64,000 nt of DNA from Candidatus Latescibacterota bacterium. Lineage in GTDB: Bacteria > Latescibacterota > UBA2968. Shown here one piece after another: positions 41,442 through 59,446 of the stretch. Location: the NCBI GenBank assembly GCA_965204745.1, contig OZ242010.1, positions 5,344,001 through 5,408,000 of the forward strand, read 5' to 3'. Under the pieces are notes generated by a model that saw nothing but the letters and a program-made list of their open reading frames with translations, ran no database searches and was not told the DNA's origin. How positions within the stretch are numbered: the first letter of the stretch is position 1; the number at the start of each line of letters is the position of its first letter. A program made the translations under genes and the position numbers.

Positions 41442-41670
41442 ACCTATCCCCCCGGCCCCCTTTCCTACGAGGAAAGGGGGAGCGCATGGCTTTCTTGAAG
41501 GGTTGTATCCAGGGCTGTTTTGATGGCTTTGAGCGAATGGATCACGCCATGAAAATCCAAAAACCCTTACACACAATCCCTCGCAAAACCTCTCGCCATT
41601 CCCCCTTCCTCGCAGGCACAGGCGTAGCCTACAACGAAGCGAAGCGAGTAACGGGGCCAGGGGGTAGGTC
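41442..41670. repeat. REP-like doublet element, copy A
   Basis: Inverted arms ACCTATCCCCCCGGCCCC... and ...GGGGCCAGGGGGTAGGTC. Related to 63446-63669 and to a half copy at 10361. Confidence 0.75.
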
Positions 41671-41721
41671 CCCCTCGCACGCCTTCTCGCTTGACCACCG
41701 ATCCCATCGTCATTTTACCGC

Positions 41722-41750
41722 TTGACAAACAATAGCGTAATTTTTAATTT
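41722..41750 (+). promoter_or_regulatory. Putative promoter for leader ORF and giant gene
   Basis: TTGACA-17 nt-TAATTT in an AT-rich stretch. Confidence 0.45.
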
Positions 41751-41834
41751 TTCACCCATTCACCATTGCGATTTTGAGCGCGAAGGAAAAGCCGCGCCCG
41801 GTCTGCGCGACAGCTTTTGCAAAGGAGGCTCCAG

Positions 41835-42023
41835 ATGATTACCGCCATTTTCAGCCGCTGTTTGAACCTCATTTGGTCCTATGTTTCCACCGTGAAAACT
41901 GACGTTCATATCGCCCATTCTCGTCTTGGTGTGTGCTTCTATTTTATTGCGAAACAGTCCGTTAGGCTGATCAGTACAGCCCCCCCCCCCCCCCCCCCCC
42001 CCTCGAGAAGAGAGTCAAAATGA
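41835..42023 (+). CDS. Leader ORF crossing a poly-C tract, stop overlapping the giant gene start
   Basis: AAAGGAGG RBS at 41821-41828, ATG 41835, 62 aa, ATGA overlap at 42020-42023. Confidence 0.6.
   Translation: MITAIFSRCLNLIWSYVSTVKTDVHIAHSRLGVCFYFIAKQSVRLISTAPPPPPPPSRRESK
41980..42002 (+). repeat. C23 homopolymer (candidate phase-variation tract)
   Basis: 23 consecutive C, ending 17 nt before the giant gene ATG. Confidence 0.9.
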
Positions 42024-45000
42024 CATCCCGCTACGCTCATTTGTTAGCTATGGTCGCGCTGGTCGTGCTGATGGCATCGGGGCCGGCTTTTGCCCAAACC
42101 GACTACGACACGGACAACGACAACCTGATTGACGTCACCTCCTTGGCGCAACTCAATGCCATTCGCTGGGATCTCAATGGCGATGGTGCCATAGACGCAA
42201 GTGCCTCGACCAGCGATACGACCGCCTACAACGCCGCCTTTCCCAACGCCATGTCGGGCATGGGTTGCGCCGCTACCTGCACCGGCTACGAACTGATGAA
42301 CAACCTCAACTTTGACGAGAACAGCGACAACGAAATCACCTCAGCAGACGCCACCTACTGGAACAATGGCGCAGGCTGGGCGCCCATCGGCAACAGCGAG
42401 ACGAAATACACCGGCAACTTCCACGGCAACGACAATACCATCTCCAACCTGTTTATCGACCGCTCTGCCGCCAACGACATCGGGCTGTTCGGCTTTGCCG
42501 AGGGCGGCACGATTCGCAATTTGAGTCTGGTGAACGCCGATGTGACCGGCTCTAGTTATACCGCAGTCCTTGTTGGCCAAGGCACCAGGCTCCAGCTCAT
42601 GCACATCCGCGTTACCGGACAGGTCAGCGGGCTCAGCAATGGCGGTGGCTTGGTGGGCAGTCTGACGCACGGTAGCTCGACCATTACCGCCTGCGGTGCC
42701 GAGGTGGACGTCACTGGGCGCGGTAGCAGAACCTACTCTGATATAAGCTTCGGCGGTCTGGTAGGTGGCAACTCCGGCACGATAACCGCTAGCTATGCCA
42801 CCGGCGCAGTCAGCAACGACAATGTTTACGTCGGCGGTCTGGTGGGCTTTCACGGCTCAAGTGCTGTCATACGCGCCAGCTATGCCACCGGCGCCGTTAG
42901 AGGCCAAACCTTATTCGGCGGCCTGGTCGGTATTGCTTTTGGGGGCGCGATAACCGCTAGCTATGCCACCGGCGCCGTCAAGGGCACCGGCGCCGTCTCT
43001 TATATCGGCGGTCTGGTGGGCTTCAACAGTTCTACATCAATTACCTACAGCTACTACGATAGTACCACCACCGGACAAAAAGACACCGGACGCGGCGCCC
43101 CTCAGACCACCGCCGGTCTCCAAAACCCCACGGATTATACCGGCATCTACGCCAACTGGAACCTGAACCTGGACGGGCAAACGGGCAACGACAATCCGTG
43201 GAGCTTTGGCACGACGAGTCAGTATCCGGTCTTGAAGTATGCCGGCATGGACACCGCCGCGCAATTTAACGCGCAACGGGTGGGCAAGCCGACGGGTGTG
43301 ATGGTGGCGGGGAAGACGGACACGCTGACCGTGACTTGGGGGTTAGTACGCAATGCAACCGGGTATAAGGTGCGGTGGAAATCAGGGATTCTGACTTACC
43401 CCACCTCTGATCTGGCGGCCGCCACGCGCGGGCAAGCCACTATCGGTAGCGTGCTCACCACGACCTACGATATTTCTGGGCTGACCACAGGGACGACCTA
43501 CACGGTTCAAGTCATCGCCACCCGCCTCAATGCAACCGACAGTGACCCTTCGGACGCAGTCATGGTGACGCCGGCGACCACCAAGCCCACCAATGTGCGC
43601 GTGACGCCTGCGCCGGTCCAACTCATTGTGGATTGGACCAAGGCAACCGGCGCGACGGGGTACAAGGTGCAGTGGAAGTCCGGTGGACAGACCTACAACA
43701 CCTCTTCTCGCCAGGCGATGGTCTCTGGGGTGAACACCACGACCTACACGATAGAGGGCCTGACTTTTGGCACGACCTACACTGTGCGCGTCACTGCTAC
43801 CCTGGCAGGTGGGACCGATAGTGATCCCTCGGACGAGGTCGTGGGCACGCCCCTTAGAGGGCTGGACATGCCGACGGGTGTGATCGTGATGCCCAAAGTG
43901 GACACCTTGGACGTGCGCTGGACTGCGGTGAGCACTGCGACGGGGTACAAGGTGCAGTGGAAACTCCACAGGCGGACCTACGATGTTTCGCGTCAGGTGG
44001 TCGTCACGGGGACGCGCTACGCGATCCCCAACTTGATCGCCGGGGCGTCCTATCTCGTGCGTATCATTGCCACCAAGGCCGGTCTGCCCGAGAGTGCTCC
44101 CTCAACCGAGGTGCCCGGCGTTCCCTTGCTACGTAGCCCAATGGGTGTGATGGTGACAGCGGATATGGACACGCTGACCGTGACTTGGAACGCCGTGGAC
44201 AATGCAACCGGGTATAAGGTGCAGTGGAAATCAGGGAATCTGACTTATCCCACCGCCGATGTGGAGACCACCGCCTTGCGCGGGCAAGCTACAATCGCAG
44301 GCGGGAACACCACGACCCACAAAATTTCTGGGTTGACCGCAGGGACGACCTACACGATTCGCGTCATCGCCACGCACACCAATGTAGCCGATAGCGCTCC
44401 CTCTGTCGAGGTGCCCGGCGTTCCTTTGCTGGGCAAGCCGACTGTGATGGTGGCGGCGAAGATGGACACGCTGACCGTGACTTGGAACGCCGTGGACGAT
44501 GCAACCGGGTATAAGGTGCAGTGGAAATCAGGGAATCTGACTTACCCCACCGCCGATCTGGATTCCGCCACGCGCGGGCAAGCCACCATCGCAGGCGGGA
44601 ACACCACGACCCACAAAATCTCCGGTGTGACCGTCGGGACGCTCTACGCGGTTCGCGTCATCGCCACGAGCACCAATACCAATATCGCCGACAGCACGCC
44701 TTCGGAGGAAGTCATGGTGATGCCGGCGACAAACAGGCCCACCAATGTGCGCGTGACGCCGGGGACGACCCAACTCCTTGTGCGTTGGACCGAGGCAACC
44801 GGCGCGACGGGATACAAGGTGCAGTGGAAGTCCGGGCAACAGGCATACGACCCCTCTTCTCGACAGGCGCAGGTCTCTGGGGTGAGCACCACGACCTACA
44901 CGATAGAGAACCTGACGGTTAGCACGACCTACACGGTGCGCGTCATCGCTATCCTGTCAGGTGGGGTCGATAGCACGCCCTCGGACGAGGTCATGGGCAC

Positions 45001-48000
45001 GCCCCCGGGGATCGATTACGACAGGGATGGCGATGGCCTCATCGACATTACGACGCTGGCACAACTCAATGCCATCCGCTACGACATGGATGGCAACGGC
45101 GACGCTACCCACGCCGTTTATGCCGCCGCTTTTCCCAACCGCGATACCACCAGTAGCATCCGGATGGGTTGCCCTTCCGGGACCTGCACCGGCTACGAAC
45201 TGCTCAACAACCTCGACTTTTCAGGAGGTCAATGGACCAGCGGCGCGGGTTGGCTCCCTATTGGAGTGTGGGGGCGTAATTCGTGGGAGACTTACACTGG
45301 CACGTTCAAGGGCAATAACAAGACCATCTCCAACCTGTACATCAACCGTGGTGACGATATTGATGTTGGGCTGTTTGGTCATGTCAGCGGCAACATTTCC
45401 GGTCTGGGGCTGAAAAATGTCGATGTAAGAGGCACCGACAATGTGGGTGGGTTGGTCGGTGAACAGGAGGGTGGTCGCATACTGAGTTGTTTTGTCACGG
45501 GTCGCGTTGAGGGTTGGAGTACCGCCATTAGAACTACGGGCGGTTTGGTGGGTCGTTCAGGAGCTAACACCGTCATCGCGGCCAGCTATGCCAATGCTGA
45601 GGTCATCATGGATCTGGATGAAACTAATGCTTATGCCGGCGGTTTGGTGGGCTTCAAATCAAATAGTTCTGAGATAATAGCGTCCTACGCCATCGGGCCG
45701 GTGACTGGTAGAAATGCAGGCGGTCTGATTGGGCATGGTGGTGCTGCTACTTCTTTTAGTTTGGCTAGCTATTCCACAGGGACAGTCACTGGGGGAGGCT
45801 ACATAGGCGGATTTGTGGGGAGGTTAGGGGCGGGATCGTATAGCTATTGGGATACGGAAAGTAGCGATCTCTTATCCAGTGCTGGCGGCACGGGCCAGAC
45901 CACCAGCGCGTTGCAGTCGGAAACGGACTACGACGGCATCTACGCCAGTTGGGATGTGGATGTCGATGGCAGGGTTGGCAATGACGATCCGTGGACCTTT
46001 GGCGCGGCGGATCAGTATCCGGTGTTGAAATATGCCGGCATGGATACCACCGCACAATTTGCAATGCAACCGCCGGGCATTCCGACAAGTGTGACCGTGA
46101 CGGTGCAAGCGGCCACTTTGGATGTGCGTTGGCGTGCGGCGAGTTATGCGACGGGGTACAAGGTGCAGTGGAAATCCGGCATGCAAAGCTACGACGCCTC
46201 GCGTGAGGGGATCGTCACGGGGACGCGCTACAATATCCCTAACTTGGCGGTTGGGACGACCTACACAGTGCGTGTCATTGCCACCAAGACCGGTGCCCGC
46301 GATGGCCGGCCCTCAGCAGAGCAGACCGGCGTTATCTCCGTGCTGGGCAGTCCGACTGTGATGGTGGCGGCGAAGTTGGACACGTTGACCGTGACTTGGA
46401 ATGTGGTGACCAGCGCAACCGGCTACAAGGTGCAGTGGAAATCGGGGTCAGAGACTTATCCCAATGCCGATCTGGCGTCCGCCTTGCGCGGGCAAGCCAC
46501 CATCGTAGGCGGGAGCACCACGACCTACAAAATCCCCAATGTGACCAGAGGGACAGCCTACACGGTGCGCGTCATCGCCACGCGTACCAATGTAGCCGAC
46601 AGTGCCCCCTCGGAGGAAGTAACCGGCGTTCCCGGGCTGGAACGCCCGACGGGTGTGGATGTGAGTGCGACGGTGGACACGCTGACCGTGACTTGGAATG
46701 TGGTGGACGATGCAACCGGGTATAAGGTGCAGTGGAAATCGGGGTCAGAGACTTATCCCAATGCCGATCTGGTGTCCGCCTTGCGCGGGCAAGCCACCCT
46801 CGTAGGCGGGAGCACCACGACCTACAAAATCCCCAATGTGACCACAGGGACGACCTACACGGTTCGCGTCATCGCCACGCGTACCAATGTAGCCGACAGT
46901 GCCCCCTCGGAGGAAGTAACCGTGCTGGTTAGCCCGACGGGTGTGATGGTGCGTGCGACGGTGGACACGCTGACCGTGACTTGGAATGCGGTGGACGATG
47001 CCACCGGGTATAAGGTGCAGTGGAAATCCGGGTCAGAGACTTATCCCAACGCCGATTCTCAGGCCGCCACGCACGGGCAAGCTACCATCTCTGACGGGGG
47101 CACCACGACCTACGATATTTCTGGGCTGACCGCAGGGACGACCTACACGGTTCGGATCATCGCCACGAGTACCAATAGCAATGTAGCCGACAGTGCCCCC
47201 TCGGCAGAGCAGACCGGCGTTCCCGTGCTGGGTAGCCCGGCTGTGATGGTGGCGGCGAAGGCGGACACGCTGACCGTGATGTGGAATGCGGTGGACGATG
47301 CCACCGGGTATAAGGTGCAGTGGAAGTCCGGGTCAGAGACTTATCCCAACGCCGATCTGGCGTTGGCCACGCACGGGCAAGCCACAATCGCTGGCGGGGG
47401 CACCACGACCTACAAAATTTCTGGGCTGACCGCAGGGACGACCTACACGATTCGCGTCATCGCCACGCGTACCAATGTAGCCGACAGTGCCCCCTCGGCA
47501 GAGCAGACCGGCGTTCCCGTGCTGGGTAGCCCGGCTGTGATGGTGCGTGCGAAGTTGGACACACTGACCGTGACTTGGAATGTGGTGACCAACGCAACCG
47601 GGTATAAGGTGCAGTGGAAATCCGGGTCAGAGATTTATCCCACCTCCGATGAGCAGTCCGCCACGCGCGGGCAAGCCACTATCGTAGGCGGGCGCACCAC
47701 GACCTACAAAATTTCTGGGCTGACCAGAGGGACGACCTACACGGTTCGCGTCATCGCCACGCGTACCAATGTAGCCGACAGTGCCCCCTCGGCAGAGCAG
47801 ACCGGCGTTCCCGTGCTGGGTAGCCCGGCTGTGATGGTGGCGGCGAAGGTGGACACGCTGACCGTGACTTGGAATGCGGTGGACGATGCCACCGGGTATA
47901 AGGTGCAGTGGAAATCCGGGTCAGAGATTTATCCCACTTCCGATGAGCAGTCCGCCACGCGCGGGCAAGCCACTATCGCTGGCGGGAGCACCACGACCTA

Positions 48001-51000
48001 CAAAATCTCCAATGTGACCACAGGGACAGCCTACACGGTGCGCGTCATCGCCACGCGTACCAATGTAGCCGACAGTGCCCCCTCGGAGGAAGTAACCGTG
48101 CTGGTTAGCCCGACGGGTGTGATGGTGGCGGCGAAGGTGGACACGCTGACCGTGACTTGGAATGCGGTGGACGATGCCACCGGGTATAAGGTGCAGTGGA
48201 AATCAGGGGCAGCGACTTATCCCAACACCGATTCTCAGGCCGCCACGCACGGGCAAGCTACCATCTCTGACGGGGGCACCACGACCTACGATATTTCTGG
48301 GCTGACCGCAGGGACGACCTACACGGTTCGGATCATCGCCACGAGTACCAATAGCAATGTAGCCGACAGTGCCCCCTCGGCAGAGCAGACCGGCGTTCCC
48401 GTGCTGGGTAGCCCGGCTGTGATGGTGGCGGCGAAGGTGGACACGCTGACCGTGACGTGGAATGTGGTGGACGATGCCACCGGGTATAAGGTGCAGTGGA
48501 AATCAGGGTCAGCGACTTATCCCACCGCCGATCTGGCGTTGGCCACGCGCGGGCAAGCCACAATCGCTGGCGGGGGCACCACGACCTACAAAATTTCTGG
48601 GCTGACCACAGGGACGACTTACACGATTCGCGTCATCGCCACGCGTACCAATGTAGCCGACAGTGCCCCCTCGGATGAAGTCATGGTGACCTTGGCGACA
48701 AACAAACCCACCAATGTGAATGTGCGCGTGACGCCGGGGATAGCCCAACTCATCGTGCGTTGGACCGAGGCAACCGGCGCGACGGGATACAAGGTGCAGT
48801 GGAAGTCCGGTGGACAAAGCTACAACACTTCTTCCCGCCAGGAGACGGTCTCTGGAGGCAGCACCACGACCTACACGATAGAAAACCTGACTTTTGGCAC
48901 GCCCTACACGGTGCGCGTCACTGCTACCCTGACAGGTGGGATGGATAGCACCCCCTCGGACGAGGTCGTGGGCACGCCCCAAGCGATCAATTACGACAGC
49001 GATGGCGATGGCCTCATCGCCATTGAGACGCTGGCGCAACTGCATGCCATCCGCTGGGATCTCAACGGCGATGGTGCTGTGGACGCAAGTGCCACGTCCA
49101 GCGATACGACCGCCTACAATGCCGCCTTTCCCGGCCGCGACACCACCAGCAACGTCCGGATGGGTTGCCCGTCCGGGACCTGCACCGGCTACGAACTGCT
49201 CAACAACCTAAATTTCGACACCGACGGGAGCGGGAGCGTAACCTCTGACGACACCTACCCCAACTGGGTGCCCATCGGCAACTACTCGGCAACGTTCAAA
49301 GGCAACAACAAGACCATCTCCAATCTGCACATCAACCGTGGCGGTTGGTATCATGTTGGGCTGTTTAGCCAGGTCGGCGGCAACATTTCCGGTCTGGGGT
49401 TGAAAAGTGTCAATGTAAGAGGCGGGCATCAAGTGGGTGGGCTGGTCGGTAATCAGTGGGGTGGTCGCATCCTGGGCTGTTATGTCACGGGTCGCGTTGA
49501 GGGTACTGGTAGCTATGTGGGCGGTTTGGTGGGTCATTCAACCGGCAATAATACCGTCATCGCGGTCAGCTATACCAATGCTGTGGTCTCCGGAGGGCGG
49601 CTTCAAGAAGGGGTCGGCGGTTTAGTGGGCATACTATATACTACGGTGATAGCGTCCTACGCCATCGGGCCGGTGACTGGAAATAGCAGGGTAGGCGGTT
49701 TGGTGGGGAGATTGGCCATTACTTCTGGTCATTCTCCTCTGGTTGGTTCGGTTAGTACCAGCTATGCCACGGGGACAGTCACTAGGCTCAACCAATTCTC
49801 CAGCAATCTAGGCGGATTGATCGGGTCTAAACGACATAATTTAGTGTCCCATAGTTACTGGGATAGGGAAAGTAGCGGTTTCTCAACTAGTGCTGGCGGC
49901 ACGGGCAAGACCACCAGCGAGTTGCAGTCGCAAACGTCATACAACGACATCTACGCCAGTTGGAATGTGAATGTCGATGGTAGCCCTGGCAATGACAACC
50001 CGTGGACCTTTGGCGCGGCGGATCAGTATCCGGTCTTGAAATATGCCGGCATGGACACCACCGCGCAATTTGCAATGCAAGCACCGGGCATTCCGACAAG
50101 TGTGACCGTGACGGTGCAAGCGGACACCTTGGACGTGCGTTGGCGTGCGGCGAGTTATGCGACGGGGTACAAGGTGCAGTGGAAAGCCGGCGGGCAGAAC
50201 TACGCCGTCTCGCGTCAGGCCATCACCACGGATACGCGCTACAAGATCGCCAACTTGCTCGCCGGGACGACCTACACAGTGCGTGTCATTGCCACCAAGA
50301 CCGGTGCCCGCGATGGCCGGCCCTCGGCAGAGCAGACCGGCGTTCCCGTGCTGGGCAGTCCGACTGTGATGGTGGCGGCGAAGGCGGATACGCTGACCGT
50401 GACATGGAATGCGGTGACCAACGCAACAGGGTATAAGGTGCAATGGAAATCCGGGGCAGAGACTTATCCCGCCGCCGATGAGGAGTCCGCCACGCACGGG
50501 CAAGCCACCATCGCTGGCGGGCGCACCACGACCTACGATATTTCTGGGCTGACCGCAGGGACGGCCTACGCGATTCGCGTCATCGCCACGCGTACCAATG
50601 TAGCCGACAGTGCCCCCTCGGCAGAGCAGACCGGCGTTCCCGTGCTGGATAGCCCGACGGGTGTGGATGTGAGTGCGACGGTGGACACGCTGACCGTGAC
50701 TTGGAATGTGGTGGACGATGCCACCGGGTATAAGGTGCAGTGGAAATCCGGGTCAGAGACTTATCCCAACGCCGATTCTCAGTCCGCCACGCGCGGGCAA
50801 GCCACAATCTCTGGCGGGGGCACCACGACCCACAAAATTTCTGGGCTGACCACAGGGACGACCTACACGGTTCAAGTCATCGCCACGCACACCACAACGG
50901 CCGGCAACAGTGCCCCTTCGGCCGCAGTCATGGTGACCTCGGCGACAACCAAGCCCACCAATGTGCGCGTGACGCCGGGGCCGCTCCGATTCATTGTGGC

Positions 51001-54000
51001 TTGGACCGAGGCAACCGGCGCGACGGGCTACAAGGTGCAGTGGAAGTCCGGTGGACAAAGCTATAACACGGCGACTCGTCAGGTGGTGGTCTCTATGAAC
51101 ACCAGGACCGCCACGATTGTGAACCTGACGATTGGCACGATCTACACGGTGCGCGTCACTGCTACCCTGGCAGGTGGGATCGATAGTGATCCCTCGGACG
51201 AGGTCATGGTCACGATCCAAGGGATCAATTACGACAGCGATGGCGATGGCCTCATCGCCATTGAGACGCTGGCGCAACTGCATGCCATCCGCTGGGATCT
51301 CAACGGCGATGGTGCCATAGACGCAAGTGCCTCGACCAGCGATACGACCGCCTACAACGCCGCCTTTCCCAACCGAGACACCACCAGCAATGTCCGGATG
51401 GGTTGCCCTTCCGGAACCTGCACCGGCTACGAACTGCTCAACAACCTCGACTTTGACGAGAATGGCGACGACGAAATCACCTCAGCAGACGCCACCTACT
51501 GGAACAACGGCGACGGCTGGCTACCCATCGGCACAGACGCCGCCAAATACACCGGCGATTTCAAGGGCAACGGCTACACTATCGACAACCTGACCATCAA
51601 CCGACCCTCCGTCGGTGAAGTGGGATTATTCGGCAACGCCGACACCGCCTCCCGCATCGAGTCCGTCGGCATAACCAACGCCAGTGTTGCGGGAGGCGAA
51701 TATGCCGGCGCTCTGGTCGGTGCCCTGCGCGGCATAGTCGTCGCCTGCTACTCCACCGGCAACGTTTCGGCGACGACTAGGGTCGCCGGTGGACTGGTCG
51801 GATGGACGCCCAACGCTATTACCTCAAGCTACTCCACCGCATCCGTCAGCGGCCCTGAGCATGTCGGCGGACTGCTGGGATCAAGCCAAGGCGGCTCCGT
51901 AACGAACTCCTACTCCACCGGCACGGTTACCGGCACCGGCAGTTCTCCACTCATCGGCGGGTTGATAGGCTCCGGCACGGGTGGCACCGCAAGCTACTGG
52001 GACACCCAAACCAGCGGCTGTACATCCGGCGGTAGCAACGGTTGCACAACCAGCGCCGGTGGTGGCGGCGTTACCGGCCAGACGACCAGCGCGCTCCAAT
52101 CCCCCACCGGCTACACCCTCATCTTCTCCACTTGGAACGCCAACCTCGACGGACAAGCCGGCAACGACGATCCTTGGGCCTTTGGCAAGACAGATCAATA
52201 TCCCGTGTTGAAATATGCCGGCATGGACACCACCGTGCAGTATAACTTGCAACCGCCGGGCATTCCGACAAGTGTGACCGTGACGCCACAAAGGGACACC
52301 TTGGACGTGCGTTGGACTGCGGCGAGTTATGCGACGGGGTACAAGGTGCAGTGGAAATCCGGCATGCAAAGCTACGACACCTCACGTCAGGGGACCGTCA
52401 CGGGGACGCGCTACAAGATCTCCAACTTGATCGGCGGGACGACCTACACAGTGCGGGTCATTGCCACCAAGACCGGTGCGCCCGATGGCACACCCTCGGC
52501 AGAGCAGACCGGCGTTTCCGTGCTGGGCAGTCCGACTGTGATGGTGGCGGCGAAGGTGGACACGCTGACCGTGACGTGGAATGCGGTGTCCAACGCAACA
52601 GGGTATAAGGTGCAGTGGAAATCCGGGTCAGAGACTTATCCCGCCGCCGATGAGGAGTCCGCCACGCACGGGCAAGCCACTATCGCTGACGGGAGGGCCA
52701 CGACCTACGATATTTCTGGGCTGACCGCAGGGATGGCCTACACGGTGCGCGTCATCGCCACGAGTACCAATAGCAATGTAGCCGACAGTGCCCCCTCGGC
52801 AGAGCAGACCGGCGTTCCCCTGCTGGGCAGTCCGACTGTGATGGTGGCGGCGACGGTGGACACGCTGACCGTGACTTGGAATGTGGTGGACGATGCCACC
52901 GGGTATAAGGTGCAGTGGAAATCCGGGTCAGAGACTTATCCCAACGCCGATCTGGCGGCCGCCACGCACGGGCAAGCCACTATCGCTGGCGGGGGCACCA
53001 CGACCTACGATATTTCTGGGCTGACCGCAGGGACGACCTACGCGATTCGCGTCATCGCCACGCGTACCAATGTAGCCGACAGTGCCCCTTCGGACGCAGT
53101 CATGGTGACCTTGGCGACAAACAAACCCACCAATGTGCGCGTGACGCCGGGGCCGGTCCAACTCATTGTGCGTTGGAGCGAGGCGACCGGCGCGACGGGC
53201 TACAAGGTGCAGTGGAAGTCCGGTGTACAAAGCTATAACACGACGACTCGTCAGGTGGTGGTTTCTATGAACACCAGGACCGCCACGATTGTGAACCTGA
53301 CTTTTGGCACGCCCTACACGGTGCGCGTCCTTGCCACCCTATCAGGTGGGGGCGATAGCGAACCCTCGGACGAGGTCATGGGCACGCCCCAAGGGATCGA
53401 TTACGACAGCGATGGCGATGGCCTCATCAATATTGAGACGCTGGCGCAACTGCATGCCATCCGCTGGGATCTCAACGGCGATGGGATCGTCGCCGATAGT
53501 GATGCCGCGAACTACAACGCTGCCTTTCCCAGCCGAGATACCACCAGCAATGTCCGGATGGGTTGCCCTTCTGGGACCTGCACAGGCTACGAACTGATCA
53601 CGAACCTCAACTTTGACCAGAACAACGACGGCGAAATCACCTCAGCAGACGCCACCTACTGGAATGCCAACGCGGGTTGGCAACCCATCGGGACTTATAC
53701 CGGTACGTTCAAGGGCAATAACAAGACGATCTCCAATCTGTACATCAACCGTGGCGGTCAAAATGATGTTGGGCTGTTCGTGGATCTCACGGGCACTGTT
53801 TCCGGTCTTGGGCTCCGCAATGTGGATGTCAGAGGCAACCTCGCCGTGGGAGGACTTACCGGAAATCAGGCCGGGGGTGCCATCACGGGTTGTTATGTCA
53901 CCGGTCGCGTTCGGGGGTCTGGCAGTTTCGGCTTGGGCGGTCTGGTGGGGCATTCTCATACCGGTGCCAACCGCCGCATCAGTGCCAGCTATTCTGCTGC

Positions 54001-57000
54001 GGCTGTGACGGCCGTAGGGAGTGGGGCCAATTTCTGGGTCGGTGGTCTGGTGGGGTGGCAGAACGGCGGGACGATTATCGCGTCCTATGCGACGGGCGCG
54101 GTCACGGTTACTGGGAACGGCACGAAAGGCGGGTTGGTGGGGCGCCTCGAGAGCAGCGGTGAAGTGACGGCCAGCTATGCGACGGGTCAGGTCACGGGTG
54201 ACGGCACGAAAGGCGGGTTGGTGGGTAGCACGGCTGGCACAGTGACCAATAGCTACTGGGACAGCGACCGGAGCGGCATTGCCGGGGGCAAGAGCACCAG
54301 CGATCTCCAGAGCCAGACCACCTACGGTGCCACCAGCAACGACACCTACTACGACTGGAACCTAAATGTGGACGGCGATACCAGCACGGGCGACGCAGTG
54401 GGCAAAGACGATCCGTGGACCTTTGGCGCGACAGATCAGTATCCGGTCTTGAAGTATGCCGGCATGGACACCACCGCACAATTTAAGCTGCAACCCTCGG
54501 TAGTGATGTTGACCCTGATGCCCTCGACGATCTCGGAAAACAGTGGTGTTTCGACGGTGACGGCGACGCTGGTACACCCGTCGATCTCGGCGACGACGAT
54601 CACGGTGCGCCCGGTGGCTGGTGCCTACACGGTGGGTTCGGATTCGACGATCACCATCGCGGCCGAGAGCACGACGAACGCGTCGGACACGGTGGTGATC
54701 ACGGCCGTGGATAACACCCGAGACGAGCCTGCGCGCGACGTGCCCGTGTCCGGTGTGGCACGCAACGCCCAAGGCGCAGGCAGGGTGATCGAGGCGACAT
54801 TGACGCTGACGGACGACGACTCTGCGCCCACAGCGACGTTGGCGGCGTCACCGTTGTCGATTTCGGAGAACCTCGGTGTTTCGACGATCACGGCGACGCT
54901 ATCGCGTCCATCGAGCTCGGCAACGACGATCACAGTGCGCCCGGTGGCTGATGCTTATACCGTGGGGACGGATTCGACGATCACCATCGCGGCAGGGGAC
55001 ACGACAAACGCGTCGGACACGGTGGCGATCACGGCCGTGGACAACGCCCAAGACGCGCTTGATCGCAACGCGACCGTGTCCGGTGTGTCGCGCAACGCCC
55101 ATGGCGCGGGCAGTGTGACCGGGGTGACTTTGACGCTGACGGACGATGACGATGCGCCGGACGTGACGATGGTTGTGACGCCTGCGTCGATTTCAGAGAA
55201 CGGCGCGATTTCGACGGTGACCGCGACCCTGTCTCACACGTCGAGCGATCCGACAACGATCACGGTTTCCGTGCCTACATCATCCGACTACACATTGAGC
55301 ACGGCGGACACGCTGATCGTCGCGGCGGGGCAAACGATGAGCGCGGGCACCGTGACGATCACGACGGTGGACAACAGCATATCTTCGGGGAACAAGACGG
55401 TGACCGTGTCGAGTACGGTGGGCAACAGCGTGGGCACGGGATCGGTCACTGTTGCGACGCTGACGATTAGCGATGACGAAGTGGCGCAGGTGACGTTGGT
55501 TTTATCTCCGGCGTCGATTGCGGAGACGGGCGCGGTTTCAACAGTAACGGCGACGCTAGATCGCGCCGCAACCGCGGCGACGACGATCACGGTTTCAGCG
55601 GAGGCTGTGCCTCCTGCGGTTGCGAATGACTTCACGCTATCGACCACGACCACGCTGACTATCGCGGCGGGTGTGACGACGAGCACGGGCGCCGTGACGA
55701 TCACATCGGTGAACGACACGACCGATGCGCCGGACAAGGGCGTGACCGTGTCTGCAACGGTGGCAGGTGGCGATGGCGCGTCGCTATCGTCTGCCGTGAC
55801 ATTGACGATCACAGACGATGAGGCCGCGCCGACGGTGACGCTGTCGCTGTCACCCGCGTCGATTTCGGAGGCGAGCGGTGTTTCGACGATCACGGCAACC
55901 CTGTCGCATCGGTCAAGCGCGGCAATGACGATCACAGTGCGCCCGGTGGCGGATGCCTACACGGTGGGGTCGGATTCGACGATCACCATCGCGGCCGGGA
56001 GCACGGCGAACGCGTCGGACACCGTGGTCATTACAGCGGTGAACAACACCCAAGACGAGCCTGATCGCAACGAGACCGTGTCCGTTGTGGCACGCAACGC
56101 CCATAGCACGGGCAGTGTGACCGAGGCGACCTTGACGCTGGAGGACGATGACGCCGCGCCGGACGTGATGTTGGCGCTGTCGCCCGCGTCCATCTCGGAG
56201 GACGGCGGTGTCTCGACGGTGACGGCGACGCTGACACACCCATCGAGTGAGGCGACGACGATCACGGTGCGTCCGGTGGCGGATGCCTACACGGTGGGGA
56301 TGGATTCGACGATCGCCATCGCGGCCGGGGATACGACGAACGCGGCGGACACGGTGGCACTCACCGCCGTGGACAACGACATAGACGCGGCAGACAACGC
56401 CGCGATGGTGCAGGCCGCTGTGGAGAACGACCACGGCGAGGGCAACGTGCAGGCTGTGACGCTGACGATCACCGATGACGACGAGGCGGCGATTGAGGTG
56501 TCGGCGGTGACCTCGACGATCGTCAGGCTCCGCACGACAGAGGCGGGCAGGGCAGCGACCTTCACGGTCACGCTCGCCACCGAACCAACCGGGGACGTGG
56601 CACTCTCGGTGGTCAGTTCAAACACGGATGAAGGCACTGTATCGCCCTCGGTGCTGACCTTCACGCCATCAGACTGGAACACGGCACAAACCGTGACCGT
56701 GACCGGGCAGGACGATGCCCCTGCCAATTCCGTCGATGGCAACCAGAACTATACGGTCACCCTTTCGGTGAACCAGACGGACACGCAGGACGACAACTAT
56801 GACGCGCTTTCCAATATCAGCGTGTACATGGTCAACCTCGATAACGATTTCGGCTTGGACATCAGCGCGGTGACCGGGCAGGCGACAGAGGCCGGCGCCT
56901 CGGCGACCTTCACGGTGGCCCTGCTGACGCAACCCACGGCGGCGGTGACGATTTCGGTGACGAGCCAAGACCCGAGCGAGGGGCGGGTTGAGCCTGCGGT

Positions 57001-59446
57001 ACTGACCTTCACGACGTCAGGCTGGAACACGGCACAAACCGTGACCGTGACCGGGCAGGACGACACCATCGACGACGGGGACATCCCCTGGACGGTGCGA
57101 CTCGCCCTGTCAAGCGACGATACCGGCTACAACACCCTTGCAGACGACGTTCAAGTGACGACGACCGACGATGAAGATGCGCCGACCGTGACGTTGGTGC
57201 TGATGCCCTCGTCCATCTCGGAAAACGCCGAGGTTTCCACGGTGAGCGCGACCCTGTCGCATCCATCGAGCGCGATCACGACGATCACGGTCTCTGCTAC
57301 GCCTGTGTCCCCTGCAACTGCGGACGACTTCACGCTATCGAATGCAGACACGCTGATCATCGCGGCGACTGCTACGACGAGCACGGGCACCGTGACGATC
57401 ACATCGGTGAACGATACGACCGATGCGCCGGCCAAGCGTGTGACCGTGTCCGGTGTGGCGAACAACGACCAAGGCGCAGGCAGTGTGACCGACGAGACTT
57501 TGGTGCTAACGGACGACGACGAGGCACCGACCGTGACATTGGTGCTGTCGCCCTCGTCCATCTTGGAAAACGGCGGTGTTTCGACGATCACGGCAACCCT
57601 GTCGCATGCGTCGAGCGCGGCAATGACGATCACGGTGCGCCCGGTGGCGGGTGCTTATACCGTGGGGTCGGATTCGACGATCATCATCGCGGCCGGGAGT
57701 ACGGCGAACGCGACGGATACCGTGGTCATTACAGCGGTGAACAACACCCAAGACGCGCCTGATCGCAGCGAGACCGTGTCCGTTGTGGCACGCAACGCCC
57801 ATAGCACGGGCAGTGTGACCGAGGCGACCTTGACGCTGGAGGACGATGACGCCGCGCCGGATGTGACGTTGGCACTGTCGCCCGCGTCCATCTCGGAGGC
57901 CGGCGGCGTGAGCACGGTGAGCGCGACGCTGACACACCCATCGAGTGAGGCGACGACGATCACGGTGCGCCCGGTGGCGGATGCCTACACGGTGGGGTCG
58001 GATTCGACGATCACCATCGCGGCCGGGGATACGACGAACGCGACGGACACGGTGGCACTCACCGCCGTGGACAACGACATAGACGCATCAGACAACGCCG
58101 CGATGGTGCAGGCCGCTGTGGAGAACGACCACGGCGAGGGCAACGTGCAGGCTGCGACGCTGACGATCACCGATGACGACGAGGCGGCGATTGAGGTGTC
58201 GCCGATGACCTCGACGATCGTCAGGCTTGAGACGACAGAGGCGGGCAGGGCAGAGACCTTCACGGTCACGCTCGCCACCGAGCCGACGGGGGACGTGGCA
58301 CTCTCGGTGGTCAGTTCAAACACGGATGAAGGCACTGTATCGCCCTCGGTGCTGACCTTCATGCCATCAGACTGGAACACGGCGCAAACCGTGACCGTGA
58401 CCGGGCAGGACGATGCCCCCACCAATTCGGTCGATGGCAACCAGAACTATACGGTCACCCTTTCGGTGAACCAGACGGATACGCAGGACGCCAACTATGA
58501 CGCGCTTTCCAATATCAGCGTGTACATGGTCAACCTCGATAACGATTCCGGCCTGGACATAAGCGCGGTAACCGGGCAGGCGACAGAGGCAGGCGGCTCG
58601 GCGACCTTCACGGTGGCCCTGCTTTCGCAACCCTCGGCGGCGGTGACGGTTTCGGTGACGAGCCAAGACCCGAGCGAGGGGCGGGTTGAGCCTGCGGTGC
58701 TGACCTTCACGACGTCAGGCTGGAACACGGCACAAACCGTGACCGTGACCGGGCAAGACGATACCATCGACGACGGGGACATCCCCTGGACGGTGCGACT
58801 CGCCCTATCAAGCGACGATACCGGCTACAACACCCTTGCAGACGACGTTCAAGTGACGACGACCGACGATGAAGATGCGCCGACCGTGACGTTGGTGCTG
58901 ATGCCCTCGTCCATCTCGGAAAACGGCGAGGTTTCCACGATCACGGCGACCCTGTCGCATCCATCGAGCGCGATCACGACGATCACGGTCTCTGCTACGC
59001 CTGTGTCCCCTGCGACTGCGAGCGACTTCACGCTATCGAGTGCAGACACCCTGATCATCGCGGTGACGACCACAACGAGCACGGGCACCGTGACGATCAC
59101 CGCAGAGGACAACAACGACCAGGCAGACGAGAAGACGGTCACGGTGTCTGCAACCGCAAACAACGCCCAAGGCATCACCGCACCCTCGGATGTGACCCTG
59201 ACCATTACCGATGACGAAACACCGAGTGCCAACTTGGATGTGGATGGCAATGGCGAGGTGAGGCTGTTCTCGGATATAATCCTGATCATTCGATACGTCC
59301 TCTTCTTCCGGGAAGAGGCCCTCGTCAGAGGGAACGTCATCGAGCCAGATGCCACGCGCAAGACCCCGCAAACCATTACCCCCTACCTCGACACGTTGGT
59401 CGGTCAGAACATTCTCGATGTGGATGGCGATGGCGATGTGAGGTGA
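42020..59446 (+). CDS. Giant secreted adhesin-like protein: 5 GLUG-type modules, 24 FN3 repeats, Calx-beta-like repeats, dockerin-like C-terminus
   Basis: Signal peptide (AFA-Q). Modules DYD...CTGYEL...GGLVG...QYPVLKY x5; ATGYKVxWK counted 6+10+4+4; LTxTDDD repeats; LDVDGNG end. Confidence 0.9.
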   Translation: MTSRYAHLLAMVALVVLMASGPAFAQTDYDTDNDNLIDVTSLAQLNAIRWDLNGDGAIDASASTSDTTAYNAAFPNAMSGMGCAATCTGYELMNNLNFDENSDNEITSADATYWNNGAGWAPIGNSETKYTGNFHGNDNTISNLFIDRSAANDIGLFGFAEGGTIRNLSLVNADVTGSSYTAVLVGQGTRLQLMHIRVTGQVSGLSNGGGLVGSLTHGSSTITACGAEVDVTGRGSRTYSDISFGGLVGGNSGTITASYATGAVSNDNVYVGGLVGFHGSSAVIRASYATGAVRGQTLFGGLVGIAFGGAITASYATGAVKGTGAVSYIGGLVGFNSSTSITYSYYDSTTTGQKDTGRGAPQTTAGLQNPTDYTGIYANWNLNLDGQTGNDNPWSFGTTSQYPVLKYAGMDTAAQFNAQRVGKPTGVMVAGKTDTLTVTWGLVRNATGYKVRWKSGILTYPTSDLAAATRGQATIGSVLTTTYDISGLTTGTTYTVQVIATRLNATDSDPSDAVMVTPATTKPTNVRVTPAPVQLIVDWTKATGATGYKVQWKSGGQTYNTSSRQAMVSGVNTTTYTIEGLTFGTTYTVRVTATLAGGTDSDPSDEVVGTPLRGLDMPTGVIVMPKVDTLDVRWTAVSTATGYKVQWKLHRRTYDVSRQVVVTGTRYAIPNLIAGASYLVRIIATKAGLPESAPSTEVPGVPLLRSPMGVMVTADMDTLTVTWNAVDNATGYKVQWKSGNLTYPTADVETTALRGQATIAGGNTTTHKISGLTAGTTYTIRVIATHTNVADSAPSVEVPGVPLLGKPTVMVAAKMDTLTVTWNAVDDATGYKVQWKSGNLTYPTADLDSATRGQATIAGGNTTTHKISGVTVGTLYAVRVIATSTNTNIADSTPSEEVMVMPATNRPTNVRVTPGTTQLLVRWTEATGATGYKVQWKSGQQAYDPSSRQAQVSGVSTTTYTIENLTVSTTYTVRVIAILSGGVDSTPSDEVMGTPPGIDYDRDGDGLIDITTLAQLNAIRYDMDGNGDATHAVYAAAFPNRDTTSSIRMGCPSGTCTGYELLNNLDFSGGQWTSGAGWLPIGVWGRNSWETYTGTFKGNNKTISNLYINRGDDIDVGLFGHVSGNISGLGLKNVDVRGTDNVGGLVGEQEGGRILSCFVTGRVEGWSTAIRTTGGLVGRSGANTVIAASYANAEVIMDLDETNAYAGGLVGFKSNSSEIIASYAIGPVTGRNAGGLIGHGGAATSFSLASYSTGTVTGGGYIGGFVGRLGAGSYSYWDTESSDLLSSAGGTGQTTSALQSETDYDGIYASWDVDVDGRVGNDDPWTFGAADQYPVLKYAGMDTTAQFAMQPPGIPTSVTVTVQAATLDVRWRAASYATGYKVQWKSGMQSYDASREGIVTGTRYNIPNLAVGTTYTVRVIATKTGARDGRPSAEQTGVISVLGSPTVMVAAKLDTLTVTWNVVTSATGYKVQWKSGSETYPNADLASALRGQATIVGGSTTTYKIPNVTRGTAYTVRVIATRTNVADSAPSEEVTGVPGLERPTGVDVSATVDTLTVTWNVVDDATGYKVQWKSGSETYPNADLVSALRGQATLVGGSTTTYKIPNVTTGTTYTVRVIATRTNVADSAPSEEVTVLVSPTGVMVRATVDTLTVTWNAVDDATGYKVQWKSGSETYPNADSQAATHGQATISDGGTTTYDISGLTAGTTYTVRIIATSTNSNVADSAPSAEQTGVPVLGSPAVMVAAKADTLTVMWNAVDDATGYKVQWKSGSETYPNADLALATHGQATIAGGGTTTYKISGLTAGTTYTIRVIATRTNVADSAPSAEQTGVPVLGSPAVMVRAKLDTLTVTWNVVTNATGYKVQWKSGSEIYPTSDEQSATRGQATIVGGRTTTYKISGLTRGTTYTVRVIATRTNVADSAPSAEQTGVPVLGSPAVMVAAKVDTLTVTWNAVDDATGYKVQWKSGSEIYPTSDEQSATRGQATIAGGSTTTYKISNVTTGTAYTVRVIATRTNVADSAPSEEVTVLVSPTGVMVAAKVDTLTVTWNAVDDATGYKVQWKSGAATYPNTDSQAATHGQATISDGGTTTYDISGLTAGTTYTVRIIATSTNSNVADSAPSAEQTGVPVLGSPAVMVAAKVDTLTVTWNVVDDATGYKVQWKSGSATYPTADLALATRGQATIAGGGTTTYKISGLTTGTTYTIRVIATRTNVADSAPSDEVMVTLATNKPTNVNVRVTPGIAQLIVRWTEATGATGYKVQWKSGGQSYNTSSRQETVSGGSTTTYTIENLTFGTPYTVRVTATLTGGMDSTPSDEVVGTPQAINYDSDGDGLIAIETLAQLHAIRWDLNGDGAVDASATSSDTTAYNAAFPGRDTTSNVRMGCPSGTCTGYELLNNLNFDTDGSGSVTSDDTYPNWVPIGNYSATFKGNNKTISNLHINRGGWYHVGLFSQVGGNISGLGLKSVNVRGGHQVGGLVGNQWGGRILGCYVTGRVEGTGSYVGGLVGHSTGNNTVIAVSYTNAVVSGGRLQEGVGGLVGILYTTVIASYAIGPVTGNSRVGGLVGRLAITSGHSPLVGSVSTSYATGTVTRLNQFSSNLGGLIGSKRHNLVSHSYWDRESSGFSTSAGGTGKTTSELQSQTSYNDIYASWNVNVDGSPGNDNPWTFGAADQYPVLKYAGMDTTAQFAMQAPGIPTSVTVTVQADTLDVRWRAASYATGYKVQWKAGGQNYAVSRQAITTDTRYKIANLLAGTTYTVRVIATKTGARDGRPSAEQTGVPVLGSPTVMVAAKADTLTVTWNAVTNATGYKVQWKSGAETYPAADEESATHGQATIAGGRTTTYDISGLTAGTAYAIRVIATRTNVADSAPSAEQTGVPVLDSPTGVDVSATVDTLTVTWNVVDDATGYKVQWKSGSETYPNADSQSATRGQATISGGGTTTHKISGLTTGTTYTVQVIATHTTTAGNSAPSAAVMVTSATTKPTNVRVTPGPLRFIVAWTEATGATGYKVQWKSGGQSYNTATRQVVVSMNTRTATIVNLTIGTIYTVRVTATLAGGIDSDPSDEVMVTIQGINYDSDGDGLIAIETLAQLHAIRWDLNGDGAIDASASTSDTTAYNAAFPNRDTTSNVRMGCPSGTCTGYELLNNLDFDENGDDEITSADATYWNNGDGWLPIGTDAAKYTGDFKGNGYTIDNLTINRPSVGEVGLFGNADTASRIESVGITNASVAGGEYAGALVGALRGIVVACYSTGNVSATTRVAGGLVGWTPNAITSSYSTASVSGPEHVGGLLGSSQGGSVTNSYSTGTVTGTGSSPLIGGLIGSGTGGTASYWDTQTSGCTSGGSNGCTTSAGGGGVTGQTTSALQSPTGYTLIFSTWNANLDGQAGNDDPWAFGKTDQYPVLKYAGMDTTVQYNLQPPGIPTSVTVTPQRDTLDVRWTAASYATGYKVQWKSGMQSYDTSRQGTVTGTRYKISNLIGGTTYTVRVIATKTGAPDGTPSAEQTGVSVLGSPTVMVAAKVDTLTVTWNAVSNATGYKVQWKSGSETYPAADEESATHGQATIADGRATTYDISGLTAGMAYTVRVIATSTNSNVADSAPSAEQTGVPLLGSPTVMVAATVDTLTVTWNVVDDATGYKVQWKSGSETYPNADLAAATHGQATIAGGGTTTYDISGLTAGTTYAIRVIATRTNVADSAPSDAVMVTLATNKPTNVRVTPGPVQLIVRWSEATGATGYKVQWKSGVQSYNTTTRQVVVSMNTRTATIVNLTFGTPYTVRVLATLSGGGDSEPSDEVMGTPQGIDYDSDGDGLINIETLAQLHAIRWDLNGDGIVADSDAANYNAAFPSRDTTSNVRMGCPSGTCTGYELITNLNFDQNNDGEITSADATYWNANAGWQPIGTYTGTFKGNNKTISNLYINRGGQNDVGLFVDLTGTVSGLGLRNVDVRGNLAVGGLTGNQAGGAITGCYVTGRVRGSGSFGLGGLVGHSHTGANRRISASYSAAAVTAVGSGANFWVGGLVGWQNGGTIIASYATGAVTVTGNGTKGGLVGRLESSGEVTASYATGQVTGDGTKGGLVGSTAGTVTNSYWDSDRSGIAGGKSTSDLQSQTTYGATSNDTYYDWNLNVDGDTSTGDAVGKDDPWTFGATDQYPVLKYAGMDTTAQFKLQPSVVMLTLMPSTISENSGVSTVTATLVHPSISATTITVRPVAGAYTVGSDSTITIAAESTTNASDTVVITAVDNTRDEPARDVPVSGVARNAQGAGRVIEATLTLTDDDSAPTATLAASPLSISENLGVSTITATLSRPSSSATTITVRPVADAYTVGTDSTITIAAGDTTNASDTVAITAVDNAQDALDRNATVSGVSRNAHGAGSVTGVTLTLTDDDDAPDVTMVVTPASISENGAISTVTATLSHTSSDPTTITVSVPTSSDYTLSTADTLIVAAGQTMSAGTVTITTVDNSISSGNKTVTVSSTVGNSVGTGSVTVATLTISDDEVAQVTLVLSPASIAETGAVSTVTATLDRAATAATTITVSAEAVPPAVANDFTLSTTTTLTIAAGVTTSTGAVTITSVNDTTDAPDKGVTVSATVAGGDGASLSSAVTLTITDDEAAPTVTLSLSPASISEASGVSTITATLSHRSSAAMTITVRPVADAYTVGSDSTITIAAGSTANASDTVVITAVNNTQDEPDRNETVSVVARNAHSTGSVTEATLTLEDDDAAPDVMLALSPASISEDGGVSTVTATLTHPSSEATTITVRPVADAYTVGMDSTIAIAAGDTTNAADTVALTAVDNDIDAADNAAMVQAAVENDHGEGNVQAVTLTITDDDEAAIEVSAVTSTIVRLRTTEAGRAATFTVTLATEPTGDVALSVVSSNTDEGTVSPSVLTFTPSDWNTAQTVTVTGQDDAPANSVDGNQNYTVTLSVNQTDTQDDNYDALSNISVYMVNLDNDFGLDISAVTGQATEAGASATFTVALLTQPTAAVTISVTSQDPSEGRVEPAVLTFTTSGWNTAQTVTVTGQDDTIDDGDIPWTVRLALSSDDTGYNTLADDVQVTTTDDEDAPTVTLVLMPSSISENAEVSTVSATLSHPSSAITTITVSATPVSPATADDFTLSNADTLIIAATATTSTGTVTITSVNDTTDAPAKRVTVSGVANNDQGAGSVTDETLVLTDDDEAPTVTLVLSPSSILENGGVSTITATLSHASSAAMTITVRPVAGAYTVGSDSTIIIAAGSTANATDTVVITAVNNTQDAPDRSETVSVVARNAHSTGSVTEATLTLEDDDAAPDVTLALSPASISEAGGVSTVSATLTHPSSEATTITVRPVADAYTVGSDSTITIAAGDTTNATDTVALTAVDNDIDASDNAAMVQAAVENDHGEGNVQAATLTITDDDEAAIEVSPMTSTIVRLETTEAGRAETFTVTLATEPTGDVALSVVSSNTDEGTVSPSVLTFMPSDWNTAQTVTVTGQDDAPTNSVDGNQNYTVTLSVNQTDTQDANYDALSNISVYMVNLDNDSGLDISAVTGQATEAGGSATFTVALLSQPSAAVTVSVTSQDPSEGRVEPAVLTFTTSGWNTAQTVTVTGQDDTIDDGDIPWTVRLALSSDDTGYNTLADDVQVTTTDDEDAPTVTLVLMPSSISENGEVSTITATLSHPSSAITTITVSATPVSPATASDFTLSSADTLIIAVTTTTSTGTVTITAEDNNDQADEKTVTVSATANNAQGITAPSDVTLTITDDETPSANLDVDGNGEVRLFSDIILIIRYVLFFREEALVRGNVIEPDATRKTPQTITPYLDTLVGQNILDVDGDGDVR

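Follow-up and report, generated by a model that had tools for sequence, protein, structure and literature searches.

A Poly-C Leader Cassette Repeated Ahead of Giant Surface-Protein Genes in a Latescibacterota Bacterium, a Candidate Device for Phase Variation

Introduction

The stretch of DNA considered here, referred to throughout as the window, comprises 64,000 nucleotides of contig OZ242010.1 (positions 5,344,001 to 5,408,000 of the forward strand) in assembly GCA_965204745.1 of a Candidatus Latescibacterota bacterium of the GTDB lineage UBA2968. Its subject is a tract of 23 cytosines at the 3' end of a short leader open reading frame (ORF) that lies directly upstream of a gene for a giant secreted repeat protein. 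A first-pass annotation, made from the sequence of the window alone, had read this arrangement as a three-state translational switch in which the length of the run decides how the leader ends relative to the start of the giant gene. The genome was found to hold 36 cassettes of this kind, most of them ahead of very long ORFs, and it is our strong expectation that they are the phase-variable loci of a surface-protein family.

The Locus

The features of the locus, all on the + strand and with positions counted from the first letter of the window, are as follows.

41722-41727 (TTGACA) and 41745-41750 (TAATTT), + strand: putative promoter with a 17-nt spacer, proposed from conservation
41787..41818, + strand: hairpin predicted in the 5' untranslated region (UTR), directly before the leader ribosome-binding site (RBS); a minimum free energy fold, weak as evidence
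41821..41828, + strand: Shine-Dalgarno (SD) sequence of the leader, AAAGGAGG, 6 nt 5' of the leader ATG
41835..42023, + strand: leader ORF of 62 codons, ATG at 41835 and TGA at 42021-42023, the stop overlapping the giant ATG
41937..41979, + strand: block with the strongest conservation in the cassette, abutting the tract on its 5' side, reading ..FYFIAKQSVRLIST in the leader frame and kept in all three genomes that carry the cassette
41980..42002, + strand: poly-C tract, C23, as read in the sequence
42003..42019, + strand: linker holding GAGAAGAGAG, a degenerate purine-rich SD ahead of the giant gene, as read in the sequence
42020..42094, + strand: start codon and 25-residue Sec-type signal peptide, MTSRY..GPAFA then Q, a sequence pattern read by eye
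42020..59446, + strand: giant ORF (5808 aa), coding for a secreted repeat protein by its reading frame and Pfam matches
42130..42132, + strand: leader stop TGA of the third phase (C22 or C25), ending that frame 130 nt past the tract

The leader does open behind a strong RBS and run for 62 codons, as the first-pass annotation had described it, and the giant start of the window copy does have merely a weak, purine-rich stretch before it. In the C23 state the 3' end of the leader encodes seven prolines, which are the codons of the tract, and then SRRESK. The tract is followed by TCGAGAAGAGAGTCAAA and then by ATGA, with the giant ATG at 42020 and a tract-to-ATG distance of 17 nt. The product of the giant ORF matched fn3 in Pfam in 16+8 stretches, together with a GLUG motif and Pur_ac_phosph_N-like fn3 domains, and its signal-peptide N-terminus recurs in most of its paralogues.

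Translation of the three frames placed the leader stop of the C23 phase 21 nt past the tract, in the ATGA overlap at 42020-42023. By arithmetic on the sequence, a gain of one base or a loss of two (C24 or C21) brings the leader in frame with the giant ORF (..LEKRVK-MTSR), and a loss of one or a gain of two (C22 or C25) makes it overshoot the giant start. The geometry of the three states put forward earlier (ATGA overlap, in-frame fusion and overshoot to about 42130) is therefore exact in all three frames. Because the length of an assembled homopolymer of 23 bases may be off by one, the ATGA overlap as the present state of the locus is less sure than the existence of the tract.

A Family of Cassettes

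Runs of C or G were counted throughout the genome (5,482,115 bases, 56.5% G+C). There are 1697 of 6 bases, 189 of 7, nine of 8, seven of 9, three of 10 and none of 11, and then 30 of 12-25 bases; the distribution is bimodal and therefore does not follow from base composition. The cassette family holds 24 of those 30 long runs. These 24 loci share a common plan, namely a block of ~45 bases ending ..GATCAGTACAGTGTA, a tract of C12-C25, a spacer of 14-19 bases that includes a purine-rich SD, and then the ATG of an ORF whose signal peptide is conserved. An alignment of the 320 bases 5' of the 24 loci showed that the whole unit is kept, from a CTTGACAAA box and an AT-rich stretch, through ~75 untranslated bases, to a GGAG, an ATG and an ORF of ~50 codons that runs into the tract. 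The start codon of that ORF is ATG in all but one of the aligned cassettes, where it is GTG, and GGAG-type motifs stand at the column of the leader SD in these 24, which had been picked by their tract alone. The window copy departs from the plan in that the usual TGTA 5' of the tract is absent or has been turned into C.

A pattern search of the genome for the leader start returned 37 places, one of which (1109492) was a false match, leaving 36 cassettes; since the regular expression demanded an SD-like motif, the presence of an SD in this census is not an independent count. A separate BLAST census counted 32 copies. The 36 comprise the 24 with pure C12-C25, eight in which the tract is short or interrupted (C4 to C6, C4TC4, C4TC3) and four deletions, in which the tract region is gone and the leader is joined to the downstream ORF. 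Downstream ORFs of at least 800 aa were present in 33 of the 36 cassettes, the longest having 6292 aa, and together they amount to 86,992 codons, or 4.8% of the genome.

Further copies were sought in relatives and in public data. A pattern search for the element in 40 related genomes was positive in two (G018 and G016), both of the same genus, and a DNA search of 20 other genomes of that genus found the cassette in these two alone. The pattern search gave no cassette in any of 16 genomes of the neighbouring family. The 12 cassettes of G018 have tracts of 28, 16, 17, 16, 24, 20, 31, 16, 24, 22, 17 and 9 bases, and the single one of G016 has C17. A scan of species-representative genomes for the element plus C10 gave 10 loci, in G018 and G016 only, and the corresponding scan of metagenome contigs of the Joint Genome Institute (JGI) gave 32 loci, none of them from the cassette family and all attributable to an unrelated repeat. 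A search with the leader protein recovered 19 related small proteins of 47-89 aa that had been called separately in other assemblies, including one on a 5.28-Mb contig. The public runs that contain the window stretch are sponge and marine metagenomes or coded organisms, and none of them is listed as RNA. The recurrence of the leader and poly-C ahead of other large surface genes had been named in advance as a check on the switch proposal; with 36 cassettes here and 13 in two relatives the result was positive, and the C23 locus is accordingly a member of a repeated device and not a single odd locus.

Upstream of the leader, the CTTGACAAA box and the AT-rich stretch 3' of it were conserved in the alignment of the 24 tract-bearing cassettes, and a TTGACA/TTGCCA box was seen in most of the G018 copies inspected. 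A second cassette type has a hairpin of different sequence at the corresponding place in the 5' UTR of the alignment. A promoter inside the conserved block next to the tract was also considered and was dropped on reading the alignment, as no hexamer pair with 16-18 nt spacing fits there.

The Leader as a Coding Sequence

The pattern of change among its copies suggests that the leader is probably translated. All 36 copies in this genome keep its frame open through the tract, as do all 11 of the G018 and G016 copies that were computed and L053 of G018, which was read by eye. Among 18 distinct 149-nt leaders of the genome there is no in-frame stop, against 45 and 23 in the other two frames, and the ratio of nonsynonymous to synonymous differences (pN/pS) in this genome is 0.49 in frame versus 0.96 and 1.29 in the shifted frames. 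Diversity is concentrated at third codon positions both in the first 12 codons (0.32, versus 0.17 and 0.09) and in the last 16 (0.157, versus ~0.055). The middle of the leader is free to vary and its ends are conserved, most of all the 16 residues 5' of the tract. The length differences that we could place wholly inside the leader, away from the edge of the tract, are +12 (six copies), +33 (G016), +6 (L055) and -57 (L052), every one a multiple of three, unlike the 5' UTR of the cassettes, where gaps of 1 and 2 nt are common in the alignment. The leader peptide had no match in Pfam.

RNAalifold run on 25 leaders gave a weak consensus of -3.2 kcal/mol with one long-range helix of 6 bp and a single covarying pair. 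The helix joins leader bases 22-27 (CGYTGT) to bases 142-147 (ACARTG) just 5' of the tract, with covariation among C-G, U-G and U-A; it is clearer in the paralogues than in the window copy, where it corresponds to 41856-41861 paired with 41976-41979 plus the start of the tract. Such a helix could link the two regions of the leader that are best conserved, though chance pairing would also account for it.

The Start of the Giant Gene

Most paralogues, and likewise the copies in G018 and G016, place a good and normally spaced SD (GGGAGGAG, GAGGGGGA or GAGGAG) ahead of the giant gene, from which it follows that the second ATG is a real start and not an internal methionine. These SDs are predicted to be poorly accessible. 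The mean unpaired probability of the main SD hexamer was 0.23 over 24 cassettes, compared with 0.42 over controls, for which 250 starts with an SD were taken from long ORFs of this genome (one-sided Mann-Whitney p 2e-6, a test that overstates the difference in that the paralogues are not independent). The predicted folds differ among cassette types. In eight cassettes with GAGGGGGA the last C residues of the tract pair with the main SD, and keeping the tract unpaired costs 5.7 to 10.4 kcal/mol of predicted stability; it is because of this pairing that these eight, of the GGGGGA type, lie at the 1st-5th percentile of SD accessibility. In the GGGAGG type the SD is predicted to pair with codons 2-4 of the main ORF, leaving the ATG in a loop, and in the MVLF type with a segment ~40 bases downstream.

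In each of the 24 cassettes one of the two off frames stops no more than 7 nt from the main ATG, in the form of ATGA, TGA-T-ATG or TAA-A-ATG (23 of them were computed and the 24th was read from the listed sequence). A stop that overlaps a start, combined with a weak or masked downstream RBS, is the usual anatomy of translational coupling.

Tract Lengths and Phases

The tracts have remained pure while the sequences around them diverged, by 6-25% overall and with flanks only 89-94% identical even in the closest pairs. The four closest pairs are all unequal in tract length (16/19, 20/23, 24/25 and 15/19), and three near-identical paralogues in G018 have C28, C16 and C17. Lengths range from 12 to 25 in this genome and from 9 to 31 in G018. 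For the window copy itself, public runs were compared as contigs only, and the one contig that spans the tract (run X4, record 26, 214 nt, covering 41863-42076) aligned with 0 gaps and hence also has C23; X4 is possibly the source of the assembly.

The phases that result were tabulated for all copies. Ten of the 24 variable cassettes are in frame, seven are at ATGA, two stop 4 bases 5' of the ATG and five overshoot by 67-116 bases. The G018 cassettes divide into three in frame (one, L053, by eye), four at ATGA, one that stops 13 bases 5' of the ATG and four that overshoot, and the G016 copy is in frame. More informative are the 12 copies that are locked, either by a short or interrupted tract or by deletion, of which seven are in frame, four stop at or just before the ATG and only one overshoots. 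The deletion copy at 4580245 has lost the main SD and ATG altogether, its leader being joined to the hydrophobic core of the signal peptide, and has kept an ORF of 1760 codons. Since seven of the 12 locked copies are in frame, including this one without a main ATG, the extended precursor is probably no defect. To judge by these sequences, translation of the giant protein can probably begin at the leader start, and a precursor so extended is probably not a dead end; Arg, Lys and His abound in the leader, and a signal sequence behind so basic a segment might still be inserted and cleaved at its usual site.

A separate case of length difference was seen in an insertion sequence (IS)-like element, whose three copies (987118, 1314769 and 4315178) have C9, C8 and C10 at one place and so bring different frames into register; phase variation, programmed frameshifting and noise in the assembly are all possible causes.

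A Proposed Mechanism and Its Alternatives

The reading that we prefer, to which we give a probability of roughly 0.5 when taken whole and on the evidence of sequence, is that C23 would be a slipped-strand contingency tract that acts through a translated leader and translational coupling. A single transcript would be driven by the promoter-like box, and ribosomes would load at the strong SD of the leader, read its ~49 conserved codons and cross the tract as proline codons whatever the frame, so that the length of the tract would set the manner of their exit. In one exit they would stop on or next to the main start (at the ATGA in the present case), allowing termination-reinitiation and unmasking of the RBS. 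In another they would read through in frame and yield a precursor in which a basic N-terminal extension (~65 aa) precedes the signal peptide, and in the last they would overshoot in the wrong frame, with less initiation and with 17 kb of untranslated RNA perhaps open to Rho. The main RBS is weak in the window copy and predicted to be masked by local pairing in most paralogues, often with the tract itself, and translation of the giant gene would therefore lean on translation of the leader. We infer a high rate of tract-length change in cells, productive expression in both the ATGA and the in-frame phase, and expression that is low or off in the overshoot phase.

A number of results weigh against this proposal. 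The public contigs over 41300-42900 break at 41969-42015, that is at the tract, and no within-population variation was seen in them. Both MutS and MutL are encoded in the genome, and a lack of mismatch repair is thereby ruled out as the cause of tract instability. The good SDs of most paralogues mean that the giant gene may initiate independently. The spread of phases is near uniform, with no preference, and is equally compatible with free switching, with no selection on phase and with assembly homopolymer error. In four of the 24 cassettes (tracts at 2634032, 4424129, 4491927 and 4671035) an overshoot frame is lacking, since each of the two off frames ends at the ATG, and a frame-only ON/OFF switch therefore does not apply to those four. 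The in-frame state of seven of the 12 locked copies, one of them without a main ATG, tells against part of what the first-pass annotation had proposed. A strict sigma-70 scan found 0 sites at the locus, the 309-nt leader region showed neither extra stability relative to shuffled sequences (z -0.29) nor global structure, and the G018 leaders taken alone (n=7) carry no signal of purifying selection (pN/pS 1.03, versus 0.70 and 0.84 in the shifted frames). The earlier idea of a coupling leader has thus gained a family, a coding signature in the leader and a main RBS that is weak or predicted to be masked, and has to contend with the SDs that most paralogues have of their own. Its three-state geometry is borne out by the sequence, and its proposed frame-switch logic is weakened by the four cassettes without an overshoot frame and by the seven in-frame locked copies.

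Among the alternatives, the leader ATG could be the true start of the giant gene, with phase variation taking place inside the gene, the in-frame phase alone being ON and the second ATG being an internal methionine. All four deletion derivatives are in frame, among them that at 4580245 with its 1760-aa ORF and neither main SD nor main ATG, as are three of the eight short-tract copies and 10 of the 24 variable ones, and the basic character of the leader might allow an extended precursor to be inserted and cleaved at the AFA-Q site. We nonetheless regard this as unlikely, given that a purine-rich SD, an ATG and a canonical signal-peptide n-region are kept at the second start in three genomes, that four locked copies end their leader at or just before the ATG yet keep ORFs of 1540-3765 aa, and that no cassette lacks an off-frame stop at the main ATG, for which an internal methionine would have no need. 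It is also doubtful, if somewhat easier to entertain, that the tract works independently of frame, through an EF-P-sensitive poly-proline stall or as part of a leader that senses Rho or structure, its length tuning the stall or the masking or else being incidental. CCC encodes proline in all frames, the best conservation of the leader is in the 16 residues 5' of the tract, the tract itself is predicted to pair with the main SD in eight cassettes, four cassettes have no OFF frame, EF-P is encoded in the genome and, in the portions of the reports at hand, the proline-codon leaders of the Salmonella mgt genes respond to EF-P (PMC3641672, PMC5299641). Nothing speaks directly against this reading, but the short-tract copies retain intact giant ORFs with one or two proline codons, which indicates that a long stall is not essential, and a strict arrest peptide fits poorly with the block before the tract, which by eye changes between species mostly at first and second codon positions.

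Slippage of RNA polymerase on the C runs would produce mixed transcripts, and hence all phases in each cell, so that the length of the DNA tract would matter little. Tracts of 12-31 bases far exceed the lengths at which such slippage is known, and uniform phases are what would be expected without selection on phase; the finding of overshoot in just one of 12 locked copies suggests, on the other hand, that frame does matter, and we hold this explanation to be very unlikely. Very unlikely too, finally, is the idea that the tracts are real and stable, with differences in length and phase that reflect the history of the paralogues and assembly homopolymer error and involve no switching. The single spanning public contig is also C23, and MutS and MutL are present, but there are 30 pure runs of 12-25 bases against none of 11, the tracts are uninterrupted despite flank divergence of 6-25%, their lengths spread over 12-25 here and 9-31 in G018, and the copies of the IS-like element have C8, C9 and C10.

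An additional and unlikely possibility is that the leader is a mutationally tunable ribosome-arrest leader, in which poly-proline and the 16 conserved residues would stall the ribosome and melt the pairing between the tract and the SD. Were that so, the length of the tract would set the duration of the stall, the unmasking of the RBS and the exit frame together, and 36 giant genes would each integrate a heritable stochastic state with the EF-P/proline status of translation. No device of this kind is known to have been described.

Comparison with Known Systems

Ordinary translational coupling in operons (ATGA, TGATG) has, like the cassette, an upstream stop that overlaps a downstream start, together with a downstream RBS that is weak or masked, as is predicted for the cassettes; the cassette differs in that the overlap exists in one of three tract phases only, such that mutation could switch the coupling itself. 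In lic1 of Haemophilus influenzae the number of tetranucleotide repeats selects the in-frame start among several and gives more than two levels of expression. The cassette resembles it in having a repeat number that would select the start, with more than two levels, and is unlike it in that the lic1 repeat lies inside the gene, without a separate conserved leader cistron.

To judge from the accessible parts of the report, the nearest of the described systems is pil1 of Streptococcus gallolyticus, through which phase variation by way of a leader peptide is already known and in which GCAGA repeats in a leader peptide gene change where the leader ends with respect to a terminator hairpin (Danne et al. 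2014, PMC3894217). As far as that text goes, both have a repeat in a translated leader ORF (here one that is probably translated) 5' of a gene for a surface structure, in both the repeat number moves the frame or stop of the leader, and in both (here as proposed) the position of the leader ribosome sets downstream expression. Where pil1 has GCAGA and a terminator as its target, the cassette has a homopolymer that gives proline in every frame and ends 14-19 nt short of the main start, and the RBS and start codon as its apparent target; one phase fuses the leader to the protein, and the device is present in 36 copies in one genome, features that set it apart from pil1 as described in those parts. 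A scan and folds revealed no terminator on the + strand between the tract and the main start, and no stable hairpin in the window copy, and for this reason the cassette fails one of the defining features of pil1.

The contingency tracts of Neisseria, Campylobacter and Haemophilus lie, in the sources as available, in coding sequence or promoter spacers and are mostly of 8-15 bases (PMC5084427, PMC6321876, PMC11868660). Going by the same texts, the cassettes share with those loci long perfect G/C runs at surface-protein genes, many to a genome and of unequal length, and are distinguished by a separate conserved leader cistron, by lengths of 12-31 bases, by belonging to a single cassette family and by their occurrence in an uncultured sponge-associated lineage. 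The term "leader peptide" did not occur, on a term search, in the searchable part of the 2025 review of phase variation among these sources (PMC11868660). The leaders of Salmonella mgtP and mgtA have, in the sections available, a fixed number of about three proline codons, alternative RNA stem-loops and a response to EF-P (PMC3641672, PMC5299641, PMC6460261). Like them, so far as those sections describe, the cassette places a short leader ORF with consecutive proline codons 5' of a regulated gene; unlike them, it has 4-9 proline codons (seven in the window copy) that derive from a mutable homopolymer, and no alternative stem-loops were found in it.

Our search of the literature on Latescibacterota and sponge symbionts found no description of such a device, and in the searchable text of a paper on sponge Latescibacterota (PMC12993501) a term search gave 0 mentions of phase variation or of homopolymers. 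The novelty of the cassette is that it is a leader-cistron homopolymer variant of known leader-peptide switching, repeated 36-fold.

Other Poly-C Loci and the Surroundings of the Cassette

The genome has poly-C runs outside the cassette family. At 732472-732492 on the - strand, in another family, an upstream ORF of 48 codons ends 3 bases past a C21 tract, with its stop inside the 5' arm of a perfect 11-bp hairpin that follows directly on the tract, and ~46 bases past the tract an SD and ATG open an ORF of 4016 codons that lies in the frame of a different tract phase; from its sequence, this looks like an attenuator-type version of the leader and tract idea. A third poly-C family occurs in two species (C19 at 1833000-1833018 here, and C23 at about position 1508 of L058 in G018), in which a short ORF, MSI(K/R)NNNL, enters the tract and a signal-peptide gene starts ~40 bases past it. 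Near-identical copies at 3250395 and 4295687 have C13 directly after an ATG with a good SD, and a second ATG 10 bases past the tract. Tandem heptamers (GGTCAGT and variants) adjoin runs of C18 and C10 at 1578675 and 3877013, and at ~1466844 there is an array of ~37-base repeats with ~35-base spacers, resembling clustered regularly interspaced short palindromic repeats (CRISPR), one spacer of which is C10 followed by T8.

Within the window, a dispersed repeat at 41350-41680 lies just 5' of the cassette, with similar sequence 5' of many of the paralogous cassettes. Summed public contig depth over it is tens to hundreds of times that of its flanks, with many joints, and it is probably an element like those termed repetitive extragenic palindromic (REP) sequences or miniature inverted-repeat transposable elements (MITEs). 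At the other end of the gene (59300-59446) the giant ORF stops right past a second DVDGDGD-type motif, of calcium-binding or dockerin-like character, and judging by this sequence its C-terminal module may be truncated. A small ORF 3' of it (59443-59607) had no match in Pfam. The remaining genes next to the giant gene in the window bear no relation to it and encode an M14 peptidase, a DUF4097 protein, a SAM hydroxide adenosyltransferase, an NHL-repeat protein and an ABC ATPase.

Significance

To our knowledge, nearly all known cases of phase variation come from pathogens in culture. The present bacterium, by contrast, is uncultured, lives in association with sponges and belongs to a candidate phylum, and it gives ~4.8% of its genome to 36 giant, fn3-rich surface proteins that are borne on cassettes. 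There is a practical warning in this for annotation, in that a single homopolymer base decides whether a cassette locus is called as fused, as split or as an orphan small ORF. The cassettes also constitute a natural series of tract lengths and linker types, with which the question of whether a homopolymer in a leader can switch coupling becomes testable. The tract probably lets cells switch the production of giant surface proteins at random, and if the tracts do switch, each cell would show a different subset of adhesin-like proteins, which would amount to bet-hedging toward host cells, phagocytosis or phages within the sponge.

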